A stretch of DNA of 64,000 nucleotides from a virus (IMGVR_UViG_3300045988_058553:119095-183094); one strand, 5' to 3'. Shown: positions 49,719 through 63,680, counted from the first letter of the stretch. A program made the numbers and translations. The notes: generated by a model from the sequence alone, not told the origin.

Positions 49719-50570
49719 ATGAAAAGAAATTTAAATGTACTACTGGCGGTAATAAACGCCTATGAAGAAAACGGAGAATTTTCTCATTTTAGTGGGTCAG
49801 AATTAAATCATAAATTTGGATTTGCTACTAAAAACATTCCGCAGATGTTAAAAGATTTAGTAGAACTGAAATATATAGAAAACCACACAATAAACGGATT
49901 TTATAATAGATATAAAATATTAAAACATATAGACTGTCCAGAATTTATATTAGACGATAGACTTTCTAATTCTCAGAAAGATTTCTTATTGAGATGTGTA
50001 GAACAAAATATAACAGAAGACCTTTCTAAGAAAGAAATGGCTAGGAGAGTAAATGGGAACGAAAATGGATGGAATTTTTCACGTTCAGTAAATGGAATCT
50101 TAGAGACATTAGAAGAGGATAGTTTATTTAATATAATTGGCGAATTTAATATAGTGAAAGGACTAAAACCAGAAAATGCAATCAAGACAGAATTTGGATA
50201 CAAAACAAATAAGAATATTAAGAAATTAGAATCTAATGAAAAAACTCAAGATAATATGATAGCTCAATTTCTATTAAAGAAGTCTTCCCATTGTAAGAGA
50301 AGAAGAAGAAGTAAAGTATTAGAATACAATCTAACGTTAGAATATATAAAAGAACTACTATTAAAACAAGAGTATAAAGACTATTACACTGGATTGGTGC
50401 CAGAAAATTACGAAGACTATTCCTTAGATAGAATAGATAGTAATTTAGGATATATAGAAGGAAATGTTGTAATTACAACCAATAGAGTAAATGCCATGAA
50501 AAATGATATGTCTACAGAAGAATTTAAAAAGCTAATTTCTGACCTATATAATAACATCACCAATTTTTAA
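49719..50570 (+). CDS. HNH-family (HNH_3-like) endonuclease with N-terminal DNA-binding region
   Basis: C-terminal SLDRIDSNLGYIEGNVVITTNRVNAMKND fits the HNH_3 pattern. Confidence 0.45.
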   Translation: MKRNLNVLLAVINAYEENGEFSHFSGSELNHKFGFATKNIPQMLKDLVELKYIENHTINGFYNRYKILKHIDCPEFILDDRLSNSQKDFLLRCVEQNITEDLSKKEMARRVNGNENGWNFSRSVNGILETLEEDSLFNIIGEFNIVKGLKPENAIKTEFGYKTNKNIKKLESNEKTQDNMIAQFLLKKSSHCKRRRRSKVLEYNLTLEYIKELLLKQEYKDYYTGLVPENYEDYSLDRIDSNLGYIEGNVVITTNRVNAMKNDMSTEEFKKLISDLYNNITNF

Positions 50571-50732
50571 AGTCGGAATTTATAATAACCCCAGGGGGCT
50601 ATTTATATAAAGTACCTGTACCCATTTACGGATAACTAAATGAAATATGTATAATATTAGAATTAGAATTTTTTAACTTTGTATTTAACTTTTCAGAAGG
50701 TATTGTTGTATATAACTAAAAAAGAAACAATT

Positions 50733-51134
50733 ATGATTACAGACTTAGAAACATTACTAAATTAGGACGAGTTTAAGAATCTCGTTGATGCAATTAATAA
50801 GAACTAGGAGTATTATCTATCAAGTAATGGTCTGACCATTAAAGCGGAATCCACAGATGATTCTTTATTCTTATTAATATCTTATGAAAGATAGAAAGAG
50901 GAAAGCTGCCTAGCTAATGAAGAGGTAGGCAAATTCCAAAAATATTTAGAATCTCTAGATGATGATTTATTTATAGATGTATGCGAATATCTAGGGGAGC
51001 TTGAAGTTCATAAAATACAAGAATGCTTAGAAAGCGGCAAGTTAGAAACAGTAAGAGCTGGTATTGCTAAATTTAAAATGGCATTGTCAGATATAGCTAA
51101 AAAGAGAATTGAACAACTGAAAGCTTATGTATGA
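50733..51134 (+). CDS. hypothetical protein (3 in-frame TAG)
   Basis: Hand translation MITDLETLLN-Q-DEFKNLVDAINKN-Q-EYY... runs to TGA at 51,132. The only internal stops are TAG. Confidence 0.4.
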
Positions 51135-51147
51135 ATAGGTTGCTCAA

Positions 51148-59824: not shown

Positions 59825-61937
59825 TAAGTACGAATTATAGAAAGCCTATAATTACTATAACGGAAAGAGAGACCCAGAATAGTTTCGTTACCTGGAAGAA
59901 AACTTTGGAATAGGTAGTCCTACTTCTGTAGAATTTACACCATTACTAAAAAAGCACGTAGATGCTCTAGTAGGGGAATATCTAGGAACCCCTATCCTTC
60001 CGAAGATTTCTTGTAAGGATTCAGATACCATTAGTAATATCACCAGAGAAAAGTAGTTAGAAATAACTAAAGGGATAGTTAAATTTCTTAGAGACCATTT
60101 AAGTAATTCTATTCTGAAATTTATCGACGGAAAAGATATTACAGATAAAGCCGTGAAGACTTAGTTAGATAAAATTATTCAAGACATTGATTAGTCTTTT
60201 ATTTCTCAATATGAGATAGCTGCATAGAATATTATTCATTATATCATGTAGTCTAGAGAAACTGATTTAATAACTAAACTCCGATAGTTACTTACAGATT
60301 TATTAATTACTGGCTATACATTTTTCAGAGTAAAATCATCATCTTCTGGAACTAACATAGAAATAGAAGTTCTGAATCCTTTAAATACTTTCGTAGATAG
60401 GAATCCAGAATCTCCATATGTTAAAAATTCGTACAGAGTAGTAGTTAGAAAATGGATGAGTAAAAGCTAGATATTAGCTAAATACGGAAAAGAAATCTCT
60501 AGAGAAGATTTGAAAAGACTAAAAGACGAATGGAGAGCTGATGATTCGGCTGCAGTTTATAGAAGAGTTTATGGTGACACTTGTACTATAGTAAATGAAG
60601 ACTAGAATCATGAAACTATTCCTGGATATCCAGATAATGAATATAGTGCTCATAGATTTTAGTTAATTCCTGTTTATGATGTAGAGTGGATAGAAACTGA
60701 TGACGATTTTGTGATGTAGAGATACAATACTATTAGAATTGGAGAAGAAATATATATTCTGAGAGGTCTAGACAAGACTGTTATGAGGTCAAAAGATAAT
60801 CCTAATTTCTGCTCTTTGTCTGTGAATGGGGTATATTTTTTAAATCGTTCTCAACAACCATACTCCCTGATATTAAAATGTGCACATCTATAGGATAGAT
60901 ATGACTTGTTAAATTATTATAGGGATAACCTGATAGCTAACAGCGGTACTGCTGGAGTAATCATGGATATGTCATTGCTTCCTACTAACCTAGGCGTAAA
61001 ATGGCCAGAAAGAGTGTAGAAATGGTTAGCATACAAGAAGGGTGGTATCATGTGGATTGATTCCACTTAGGAGGGAAGAAATGACGGAGCGCAAGCACCT
61101 AACTAGATATACAATGGATTTGATGATACCTTAAAAGCTTAGGCTGTATAGGCTATTGAATTAGCAATTCAATCAGTAGAACAAACTACATCATCTATAA
61201 CTGGAGTATTTAGAGAAAGATTAAACGGAATAGAGACTCACGATGCTGTAACTAATATTAAGCAAGGTGTTACTAACTCTTACATAGTAACCAAGCATTA
61301 TTTCTAGTAGATGGACCTAATCACTTGTGAGATATTATTGGATAGTCTAAACTAGGCTAAAATAACATATAAGAAAGGATTGACTGGTACTATTATACTT
61401 GGAGATAAATACTAGCAGATATTTACAGCGCTTCCAGAATATTTTACGGTTACTGATTATGACATCCATATAACTTCTAGCTCTGAAGTAATGGAGGATT
61501 TACAAACTATTAAAGCTATTATTCCAGAGTTTGTTAAAAGTCAGCAAATGGATCCTGACATCATATTTGAAGCACTAACTGCTAAGAGTCTTACAGACCT
61601 TAAATATAAAGTTAAGAAAGCAGTATAGATTCGTAAAGAAGAAAACAATTAGCTATAGCAGCTATAGGAAAAACTGGAAGAAACTTCACAATAGGCATAG
61701 CAGTTATAGCAAGAACTATAGAAAGCTTAGTAGAAGATAGAAAGTTTGGATGAGTAGAGATTAGGATTAGAATAGCAGAAAATGTAGTTAGAATATAAGG
61801 TTAACTGGCTAAAAGTTCAATCCGATTCTACGTATAAAGATAGACAAATGGATATAGAAGAAAAGAGAACTGAAATAGAGTTGGCTTAGCTTCACGATGG
61901 AAATCCATATAATGACAAAATAAGACAATTATATTAA
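59766..61937 (+). CDS. putative portal protein (about 30 in-frame TAG)
   Basis: 723-codon frame from ATG 59,766 to TAA 61,935 with only TAG interruptions. Q-rich C-terminus if TAG=Gln. Size and position after terL suggest portal. Confidence 0.4.
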
Positions 61938-62132
61938 AATGGGAACAATTTGGATAGAAGGCAATTTAAAAGTTTGGCAAGGCCAGTGAAGATTATTTCT
62001 GAACAAGTCGAAACTAAAAAAGCTTGTATTTTATTAGAAGATAACAAAAAAGAGTCTAATAAAGAATCTTAGAATAAAAGTTATTAGAATGGAGATTATT
62101 AGAAAAATAACACATGGATTAAATAAGGTACA

Positions 62133-63680
62133 ATGGCAACTGATATCAAAATATCTCAAATGCCTTCTGCTGGTAAATTATCTGGAACTGAAATAATTCC
62201 TATTGTACAAGATGGAGTTAATAAATCCTCAACAGTAAATAAAATTAGAGAAGGCTTAGTTACTAATAATAAATTAGAAGAACAGATTAACACTCTTAAC
62301 TCTTCTTTGGGAGAGCTACAAAAAGAGCAATAGAGTCTAAGTAAACAAGTCACAGAGTTAAGCAGTAACGTAGACTTATACTCTTATGGAGTAGAATGGG
62401 ATATCACCGTATCTTCTCCTATCCTTACTAGAATAGGAAACCCACTGTTACATAAATCCCTCCCTATTTAGTCTGCTTACAGAGGATGTGTAGCAAATAA
62501 CGGTGTGGTAAATTACTATTTACATCCAGACGATTGGGCTTACAAAGAAGATGGAAGTACCCCTTCTGTGCTCGATGGAACTGATGGAACTGTAAGAGTT
62601 CACACTCCTAAATTTTATGGTAAATCAGGCTCTAATGGAAATAAAAGATGGGTTAGAATTTCTCTAGTAAAGCTTGATGATTCATGGGTAGAAATACCAG
62701 AACTATTAATTGACGCATATAGAAATACCGTTGATAATACTGTGTCAGCAACCCCTAAAGCTGTGTCCGTGGTCAATACTACAGAAGCATTTAGAGGTGG
62801 TGGAAATAGAGCACAATTCGATAAGTATCTAACTACTGAACTTGATACCAAAGATGCTTTTAGAAGCGATTTAGGAAAACCTAGAACTAATGTTTCTAGA
62901 GCTAATATGAGAACTTATGCTACAAATGCAGGTTCTGAATTATTATGCTATGAATATTATAAATGGATATTCTACTGGAACTATGTAATAGAATATGCTA
63001 ACTTTAACTCTCAGGCTGCCTATAATGCCGAGCTTACTTCTAATGGTTATCGTCAAGGAGGACTTGGTCCTGGAGTTACAGACTGGAGTAACTCTACTAC
63101 AAGTTGGTCTGGATATAATGGAACTTATCCAATAACGCCATGTGGGTATTGTAATGATATTGGTAACTTCACTGGAATCAAAGATTTAGTTATTCCAGAA
63201 TGTACTGCAACAAACGAAGCAGATATAGTAGCGACTAAGACATTTAAAGTTCCAAGATGGAGAGGTTTTGATAATCCATTTGGAGATATTTGGACAAACC
63301 TAGATGGAGTAGTTATTCAAAGAACTGCGGCAAATGAAATCAGTAGTGTATATACTACCACAAACAAGGAAGAGTTTACTGACGTAATTGGCAATAAGAC
63401 CGTAGCAGGATATGAGGTAGCGCAAGATGGATACATTAAAGAGTTTGACTTGGGAGAAACGGCAGAGATTATACCATCTTCTTGTACTGGAACCTCAACT
63501 ACAACTTATATGTGTGATTACCACTATTGCAACGTTAGCTCTACAGCGCTTCGCACGCTGCGGGTGGGCGGCAGCGCGGATGGTGGCGGCGGTGCGGGTC
63601 TCGGCTGTTTCTATTCTAACGGTGGCGTCGGCGTTGCCGGTTCCTCTGTCGGGTTCAGGACTCTGAATAGAGTATCTTAA
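62133..63680 (+). CDS. tail-fibre-like DGR variable protein 1 (contains VR2, 2 in-frame TAG)
   Basis: Track ORFs 62,133 and 62,505 are one frame via TAG. The C-terminus ...VGGSADGGGGAGLGCFYSNGGVGVAGSSVGFRTLNRVS is typical of CLec-fold DGR targets. Confidence 0.6.
63558..63653 (+). repeat. DGR variable repeat VR2
   Basis: 32 codons, in frame at the 3' end of the 62,133 gene. 29 substitutions against the TR, all at TR adenines (codons 3-32). Confidence 0.85.

Follow-up and report, generated by a model that had tools for sequence, protein, structure and literature searches.

Amber codons read as glutamine in the late genes and homing endonucleases of a crAss-like phage

What does TAG mean in a phage genome whose large terminase and portal genes are each crossed many times by that codon and by no other stop? 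The question was raised by a stretch of viral DNA (IMGVR_UViG_3300045988_058553:119095-183094) that was analysed over its full 64,000 nucleotides and is referred to below as the window. A preliminary description of positions 49719-63680 had proposed that TAG is a sense codon, most likely glutamine, in late genes, homing endonucleases and one large minus-strand gene. The recoding of TAG was confirmed and is highly significant. We regard it as highly probable that the window belongs to a crAss-like phage with a mixed code, which reads TAG as glutamine through a tRNA(CUA) of its own, and as plausible that this tRNA, in competition with release factor 1 (RF1), delays the recoded proteins.

When only TAA and TGA were taken as stops, every gene named in the preliminary description proved to be a single frame, as it is only with TAG as sense, and no internal TAA or TGA was found in any of them. 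The terminase gene terL (57208-59568, plus strand) encodes 786 aa, has 15 in-frame TAG codons and ends in TGA, and the portal gene (59766-61937, plus strand) encodes 723 aa, has 36 and ends in TAA. The probability of such open frames, calculated from the off-frame rate of TAA and TGA in these same genes (0.077 per codon), was 4e-28 for terL and 6e-26 for the portal gene. Both proteins match the corresponding PHROG families, and the profiles span the TAG positions, the PHROG terL profile (phrog_6681) aligning with residues 92-713 of TerL (E 3.9e-62) and P22_portal with residues 154-658 of the portal. A Pfam search of TerL gave no match; its family was found through PHROGs.

Other genes of the plus strand require the same reading. 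Three small genes upstream of terL, at 55812-56036, 56036-56608 and 56639-57205, contain one, six and three TAG codons, respectively, and the tail protein gene (62133-63680; 515 aa; phrog_5302, E 1.1e-86) contains two. A doubtful 58-aa open reading frame just before the tail protein gene (61950-62126), possibly coding, contains three. The small genes 50733-51134 and 51127-51267, upstream of tRNA(CUA), have three TAG codons and a TAG at codon 4, respectively. The plus-strand genes at 51362-55825, for a PD-(D/E)XK exonuclease, a GroES-like protein and others identified with Pfam and PHROG, are TAG-free, and embedded among them on the minus strand are 52653-53045 (two TAG; phrog_15610), 53042-53233 (one) and 53309-53650 (one).

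The remaining recoded genes lie on the minus strand. They include an accessory gene of 396 aa with seven TAG codons (45028-46218) and three GIY-YIG homing endonuclease genes, 21132-21767 with four, 25801-26451 with five, the last of which is possibly the terminator, and 41491-42117 with three. Two HNH endonuclease genes belong to the same set: 29702-30124 (phrog_2255) has TAG at codons 10 and 39, within its zinc-ribbon N-terminal part, and 31400-31840 (phrog_10822) has TAG at codon 13 and a terminal TAG followed directly by TAA. The GIY-YIG profile crosses the TAG codons over residues 1-206, and the two HNH profiles do so over residues 9-117 (phrog_2255) and 12-143 (phrog_10822). Several genes with internal TAG had been missed in the preliminary list, namely 30699-31262, 51127-51267, 52653-53045, 53042-53233, 55812-56036 and possibly 61950-62126.

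Gene models with TAG, TGA or TAA as sense were compared block by block in a test modelled on Mgcod. With TAG as sense, re-calling of the region 55.8-64 kb gave 7 genes, a coverage of 7586 bp and a coding score of 651, as against 13 fragments, 3891 bp and a score of 326 under the standard code. The standard and TAG-sense models of 1-20.9 kb were identical. Reassignment of TAA or TGA was considered and rejected, since no block gained better gene models from either; most genes (71 of 97) end in TAA, and extra back-up stops behind TAA and TGA were not above the off-frame control. Database entries for the portal are already 723 aa long and so were called with TAG as sense. The loci fetched from relatives are untranslatable under translation table 11.

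The recoded genes are not spread evenly over the window, which has a G+C content of 35.5%, minus-strand genes spanning 56-49447 and plus-strand genes spanning 49719-63680. Profile searches of the window proteins placed replication and nucleotide-metabolism functions in the first 21 kb of the minus strand (56-20940), including a primase, DnaB-like and SNF2-type helicases, a Sak4-like annealing protein, an exonuclease, a nicotinamide phosphoribosyltransferase and a PRPP synthetase. ARAGORN located 20 of its 21 tRNA genes at 21-49 kb, mixed with small genes and homing endonucleases; ARAGORN and Rfam together gave 23 tRNA genes in the window, and the homing endonucleases number three of the GIY-YIG and at least four of the HNH type. 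The 3' part of the plus strand encodes the large terminase, portal and tail protein, as matched with Pfam and PHROG.

In-frame TAG was found at 0.7 per 1000 codons in the replication block, compared with 31 off frame, at 1.9 in the other genes of the tRNA region and at 2.6 in the plus-strand genes of 49719-55825. The frequency rose to 26 in 55812-63680, and gene 45028-46218 (17.7) and the five homing endonucleases (17) came next. The difference between early and late genes is highly significant (Fisher p = 8e-26), and the partition in the preliminary description therefore stood, while its restriction of sense TAG to these classes only was slightly too tidy. The glutamine codons of the late block (55.8-63.7 kb) comprise 66 TAG, 49 CAA and 19 CAG, so that TAG is the commonest at 49%; counting TAG raises the glutamine content of the block from 2.7% to a normal 5.3%. 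The plus-strand genes directly after the suppressor tRNA (51362-55825) are TAG-free, which puts the code boundary at about 55.8 kb and not at the strand switch at 49.7 kb. The replication block had been described as lacking in-frame TAG altogether. This is essentially correct but does not hold strictly for the longest open reading frames, and for three of the TAG codons in question a better ATG start is found further downstream. The code of the phage is mixed: the replication genes and most genes of the tRNA region are readable in the standard code.

TAG also appears at the ends of genes. In five to seven early or middle genes on the minus strand (23978-24430, 24868-25437, 27350-27907, 31400-31840 and 46839-47312, perhaps also 43631-43810 and 25801-26451) a TAG lies 0-8 codons before the terminal TAA or TGA. 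These codons are conserved in relatives, so the comparison is uninformative as to whether they are stop or sense. They are probably real terminators with a back-up stop nearby, and, taken in this simplest way, TAG would probably have both meanings in one genome. The same habit of placing another stop after TAG has been noted in Zeta phages (PMC12386605).

Which amino acid is inserted at TAG was determined from codon exchanges. The terL and portal genes were aligned codon by codon with those of three relatives (L001-L003), whose portals are 99%, 93% and 84% identical to that of the window. There were 77 changes between TAG and another codon, and the partner was CAA or CAG in 58; the remaining partners encode Glu (6), Arg (3), Lys (2) and Ile, Thr, Ser and Ala (2 each). 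The commonest partner is CAA, which is two mutations away from TAG, indicating a synonymous type of exchange rather than mutational proximity. When TAG is taken as glutamine, the synonymous share of changes at the TAG codons of the window is 0.80, compared with 0.80 for CAG and 0.70 for CAA. The smaller genes follow the same pattern: TAG codons in 55812-57205 are exchanged for CAA, CAG or GAA in relatives, and at those of 50733-51134 and 51127-51267 relatives either keep TAG or have CAA.

More distant comparisons gave the same answer. TerL was aligned with eight further sequences, of which L003 is 93% identical and the rest are distant, some of them TAG-free. Glutamine made up 18% of the residues opposite the TAG positions against a background of 2.8%, a 6.5-fold enrichment; Glu was 2-fold enriched, and Glu, His and Arg ranked after Gln. 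Furthermore, among the three GIY-YIG paralogues 5 of the 9 columns that can be aligned have CAA or CAG against TAG. The assignment of TAG to glutamine in the preliminary description is thus borne out by codon interchange in relatives, by distant TerL sequences, by the GIY-YIG paralogues and by the scaffold of tRNA(CUA). It is very likely that TAG is read as glutamine through the phage tRNA.

The amber suppressor tRNA(CUA) is encoded at 51273-51345 (plus strand), at the 5' end of the plus-strand block 49719-63680, and was found with ARAGORN and by a match to the full Rfam tRNA model (66.3 bits). Its resemblance to the tRNA-Gln(UUG) of the phage (34398-34470, minus strand; ARAGORN and alignment) had been pointed out before, and the two are identical at 57 of 73 positions, the best match among the 20 other tRNAs of the window. 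The D and T arms barely differ, and in the L003 copy not at all; in the acceptor stem two pairs are swapped with compensation, and the anticodon stem is remodelled. These features indicate that tRNA(CUA) arose by duplication of the phage tRNA-Gln(UUG) and alteration of the anticodon arm. The tRNA is the same or nearly the same in six relatives. A suppressor tRNA linked to a theta ribozyme was also considered and rejected: Rfam, which may lack a dedicated theta model, gave no HDV-like ribozyme at E <=1 in 46000-52200, and the next gene begins 16 nt after the tRNA.

In E. coli, supE (glnV) is a tRNA-Gln with a CUA anticodon that inserts glutamine at UAG in competition with RF1. We infer a similar role for the phage tRNA(CUA), which would decode TAG as glutamine in the genes of 55.8-63.7 kb, the five homing endonucleases, a few genes near the suppressor tRNA and gene 45028-46218, and which, like supE, would presumably receive its glutamine from the glutaminyl-tRNA synthetase of the host. 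The searches of the window proteins revealed no gene for a release factor or a synthetase. Host RF1 would end translation at TAG as long as suppressor tRNA is scarce, and full-length products of the TAG genes would appear only after the suppressor has built up. The structural, homing endonuclease and accessory effector proteins would be delayed as a result. The layout of the plus strand, in which 4.5 kb of TAG-free genes separate tRNA(CUA) from the TAG-rich packaging and virion genes downstream, fits such suppressor-gated late expression, which is plausible.

Comparable proposals exist for other phages. In phages that combine codes 11 and 15, the Sup-CTA gene typically lies at the 5' end of the recoded strand block, which was read as 'suppressor first, recoded genes after' (bioRxiv 10.1101/2022.06.29.495998). 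Borges et al. proposed that recoding delays structural and lysis proteins and noted a recoded intron homing endonuclease (bioRxiv 10.1101/2021.08.26.457843), and Peters et al. 2022 detected glutamine at TAG in peptides of two crAss-like phages, in which the proteins of the early region are unrecoded (PMC9523058).

Several observations weigh against this account. The term 'late' is taken from gene function. The TAG-containing genes 50733-51134 and 51127-51267 precede tRNA(CUA) on the same strand, so a strict order of tRNA first fails locally, and a second tRNA, which has a UUA anticodon and is encoded on the minus strand close to the head of the genes there, could give some earlier read-through of TAG. 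Scans for sigma-70-type promoters, intrinsic terminators and the Bacteroidetes -33/-7 motif were at chance level and defined no transcription units. About a quarter of the TAG exchanges involve non-glutamine codons; ordinary replacement predicts as much, and minor ambiguous decoding is possible. Moreover, the replication block may contain a genuine exception. The gene for a RusA-like resolvase (2386-2931, minus strand) has TAG at codon 4, its only canonical downstream start is a TTG at codon 33, and a start there would cut into the predicted DNA-binding module, so that this gene may need TAG as sense.

The possibility was considered that the recoding is real but that the early/late partition has no regulatory purpose, having arisen by drift once the suppressor is present and by purging before that, or, as a variant, that the main job of the suppressor is to disturb host termination. 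The free exchange of TAG with CAA and CAG at the same sites in close relatives, as between synonymous codons, is what drift would give, and recoding is no weaker in accessory and selfish genes than in structural ones. Anti-host roles have also been discussed for Zeta crAss suppressors that lack recoded targets (PMC12386605). However, TAG is the top glutamine codon of the late block, which goes beyond passive tolerance at 35% GC, and the order of tRNA, TAG-free genes and TAG-rich genes recurs across phages (bioRxiv 10.1101/2022.06.29.495998). We hold a partition of this kind to be rather unlikely. It shares one molecular mechanism with the delay of recoded proteins and differs in purpose, and the two are inseparable on present data.

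A second alternative concerns the tRNA that does the decoding. The suppressor-type tRNA with a UUA anticodon is located at 47914-47984 (minus strand; ARAGORN) and is a sound tRNA by its Rfam score of 57.9 bits. An RNA of the RAGATH-14 family (48011-48217, minus strand; Rfam, 156.6 bits) lies 26 nt upstream, and the pair is situated on the opposite, early/middle strand, not far from its upstream end. IMG/VR was scanned with the anticodon arm of tRNA(UUA), the anticodon being left free, and with the RAGATH-14 segment; the first anticodon-arm pattern scan returned mostly unrelated tRNAs, with true homologues at 8 loci only. RAGATH-14 followed by a tRNA recurs in related loci (L016, L018, L037, L081, L103, L126, L132-L140), this tRNA always standing behind that RNA, and the anticodon is UUA in the window lineage and CUA in a sister lineage (L132, L135). 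Among five variants of the tRNA all 20 stem pairs stay paired, and four pairs have changed on both sides. The tRNA has decayed in some genomes: in L134 and L139 one base of its anticodon arm is deleted, L133 lacks a large internal part of it, and in L137 it is lost and RAGATH-14 retained. One of these, L134, keeps a Gln-type tRNA(CUA) beside the decayed copy. Because of the compensatory stem changes, the full pairing and the UUA or CUA anticodons, the RAGATH-14-linked tRNA is seen as a real lineage kept as a nonsense suppressor and dispensable in some genomes.

Ochre suppressors of E. coli with a UUA anticodon read UAG as well. By such wobble, tRNA(UUA) could do part or most of the TAG decoding, perhaps with another amino acid and earlier than tRNA(CUA). 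Its conservation with complete stem pairing and the CUA anticodon of the sister lineage favour this view. On the other hand, the tRNA is decayed or deleted in several relatives, neither reassignment nor extra back-up stops are apparent for the main stop TAA, and substitutions at TAG are dominated by glutamine, which makes such a role for tRNA(UUA) unlikely. Equally tentative is the idea that the phage has two suppressor tRNAs, with RAGATH-14 as the leader or processing partner of tRNA(UUA), which would give early, low-level read-through of UAG and also of UAA. The read-through could serve, for example, those homing endonucleases that bear TAG, and the TAG-rich ADP-ribosyltransferase-like gene, which lies on the same strand 1.7 kb downstream. 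If this were true, RAGATH-14, an orphan RNA family, would gain a function and the code switch a second layer. The published Zeta table lists CTA and TCA suppressors only and no UUA tRNA (PMC12386605). A literature search found no paper that mentions RAGATH-14 by name, and a search for DUF1810, a family encoded nearby, likewise returned nothing useful.

It is very improbable that TAG encodes another amino acid, such as pyrrolysine, Tyr, Trp, Glu, Lys, Leu or Ser. ARAGORN prints 'tRNA-Pyl' for the suppressor; the label is the name that the program gives to any CUA anticodon and nothing more. A few TAG positions do stand opposite Glu, Arg or Lys in relatives, but the exchanges with L001-L003 are dominated by glutamine codons, many of them CAA, and among all 77 Tyr, Trp and Leu never occur opposite TAG. 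Opposite the TAG positions of the distant TerL homologues, where glutamine is enriched, Tyr and Trp fall to 0.16 and 0.33 of background. The tRNA(CUA) itself is an ordinary cloverleaf and a paralogue of tRNA-Gln. A pyrrolysine system was rejected on the grounds of this cloverleaf and of the alignment of TAG to glutamine; general family searches of the window proteins, none of them aimed at pyl genes, gave no match to the pyrrolysine pathway.

Decoding by the host, which would itself read TAG as glutamine or supply the suppressor and leave the phage tRNA unneeded, has just as little to recommend it. Some recoded phages have no detectable suppressor (PMC7886860). In the window, however, the early genes avoid in-frame TAG, which implies that TAG is not readable when they are translated; the phage has a conserved tRNA(CUA) of its own; and no bacteria are known with amber reassignment (bioRxiv 10.1101/2022.06.29.495998). 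Finally, although homing endonucleases often decay, the notion that the TAG codons are nonsense mutations in decaying genes or errors of sequencing or assembly is refuted, since 16 of 16 interruptions in the five endonuclease genes are TAG and never TAA or TGA (p ~2e-8), identical TAG codons are kept in independent assemblies, the best-matching portal cluster (99% identical to the query) has 1084 member sequences, and the essential genes terL and portal are the most affected.

The accessory gene 45028-46218 is part of a small group of unusual elements. It has 48 database homologues and no Pfam or PHROG family, and a Foldseek search of its product against the PDB gave nothing at E <=0.001. The indications of an ADP-ribosyltransferase-like fold are weak but consistent. 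Its neighbour, a TAG-free DUF1810 gene (44550-45035, minus strand; E 1.8e-42), overlaps it by 8 nt, and the pair recurs in a distant relative that is only 32% identical (L131 7001-8772). A pistol self-cleaving ribozyme (46280-46348, minus strand; 63.3 bits, gathering score 34.5) is placed 62 nt upstream of the gene. The block 44.3-47.9 kb is missing from several close relatives and is thus an accessory cassette. One may speculate that the many TAG codons of the gene go with an ADP-ribosyltransferase that is made late and, like T4 Alt, possibly enters the virion.

Other features of the minus strand were recorded as well. In the early block, the genes for PRPP synthetase and nicotinamide phosphoribosyltransferase stand side by side (12624-15367) and form a pair for NAD salvage. 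The gene with the highest codon-usage score in the window (35685-37643) encodes an SPFH/Band 7 protein of 652 aa, which includes a long coiled coil rich in Ala, Glu and Lys. A tmRNA-like match to Rfam RF00023 at 26522-27086 (57.6 bits, gathering score 47) is 565 nt long, compared with 374 positions in the model, and was missed by ARAGORN. Two tRNA-like elements were found by Rfam only: the one at 28971-29043 was called tRNA-Ala(UGC) by a relaxed ARAGORN run, and the one at 33563-33639 has a poor Ile(UAU)-like fold. The first plus-strand gene (49719-50570) encodes an HNH/endonuclease VII-like protein and is TAG-free. This gene and the GIY-YIG gene 41491-42117 are both missing from close relatives (loci L016, L037, L103 and L126), and the presence of these two endonucleases varies between near-identical genomes.

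The source of the window is a large crAss-like gut phage, probably of the Zeta type, whose lineage is frequent in the human gut metagenomes that were sampled. By tblastn, TerL is 26-29% identical to terminases of the Suoliviridae (Crassvirales) and 42-45% identical to those of two unclassified, unannotated human-gut phage records; a megablast search of terL and portal against the local phage collection gave no match and no record >=85% identical. The portal has thousands of database relatives, and contigs with full-length copies measure 170-191 kb. Relatives carry a reverse transcriptase gene (Pfam RVT_1) downstream, possibly part of a diversity-generating retroelement (DGR). The TerL of the window is uninterrupted; in L002 (6280-9780) the protein is split in two by a LAGLIDADG-containing insertion, and in MT835539 (L005 6001-10365) TerL matches in three separated pieces. 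Between the portal and a tail protein of ~520 aa, L001-L003 have two genes of ~245 aa (L001 12174-13647), which are lacking at 61938-62132 of the window, where only the doubtful 58-aa frame is found. The size, tRNA load, homing endonucleases, split TerL and downstream reverse transcriptase of the lineage account for the assignment to the Zeta type. Its features fit the 145-192 kb crAss-like group described by Yutin et al. 2021 (PMC7886860) and the amber-recoded, DGR-positive rows of the Zeta crAss table (PMC12386605).

Standard gene callers fragment the terminase, the portal and other genes of this phage, and recognition of the code is needed for correct annotation. The window adds one more clear case of a phage proteome that depends in part on the phage's own suppressor tRNA, a dependence thought to hold back the proteins of the virion, of lysis and of selfish elements until a late stage of infection. 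More unusual are the second suppressor tRNA linked to RAGATH-14 and the TAG-laden ADP-ribosyltransferase-like gene with its pistol ribozyme and TAG-free DUF1810 partner.

TAG as glutamine in late genes, a Gln-type Sup-CTA at the head of the block and a proposed role in timing are already published for crAss-like phages. The closest known system is that of the Zeta-group crAss-like phages (PMC7886860, PMC12386605), for example ctHMy13, ctoVY1, cthgQ11 and 3717_85572. They and the window phage have in common a G+C content of ~35%, more than 20 tRNAs, a comparable size (170-191 kb in the relatives found here), a CTA suppressor with TAG as glutamine in late genes, many homing endonucleases, introns and the reverse transcriptase that lies downstream in relatives. 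The window phage differs from the CTA and TCA suppressors of the Zeta table in having a UUA tRNA.

The code 11/15 phages of Mgcod and those of Borges et al. resemble the window in their standard-code early block and TAG-recoded late block, in the Sup-CTA at the 5' end of the recoded strand and in the alignment of TAG to TAG or glutamine codons. Unlike theirs, the recoded set of the window adds free-standing GIY-YIG and HNH genes in the tRNA region of the early strand and an accessory ADP-ribosyltransferase-like gene. A recoded homing endonuclease has been noted in Agate phages too, but for TGA. The phages of Peters et al. 2022 (PMC9523058) share with the window phage the order, the codon and the protein class (portal, capsid, tail). 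Their proteomic proof concerns other genomes.

Compared with E. coli supE, tRNA(CUA) is likewise a Gln-type tRNA with a CUA anticodon; unlike supE, it is a separate paralogue encoded by the phage, its anticodon stem is remodelled and its acceptor pairs are swapped, and the phage genome is adapted to depend on it. Suppressor tRNAs associated with theta (HDV-like) ribozymes have been described in gut phages (Kienbeck et al. 2024, PMC10879173), and there, as in the window, the recoded gut phage has a suppressor tRNA to which a structured RNA is physically linked. The theta ribozyme is found at the 3' end of the tRNA, whereas the linked RNA of the window is RAGATH-14, on the 5' side of tRNA(UUA).

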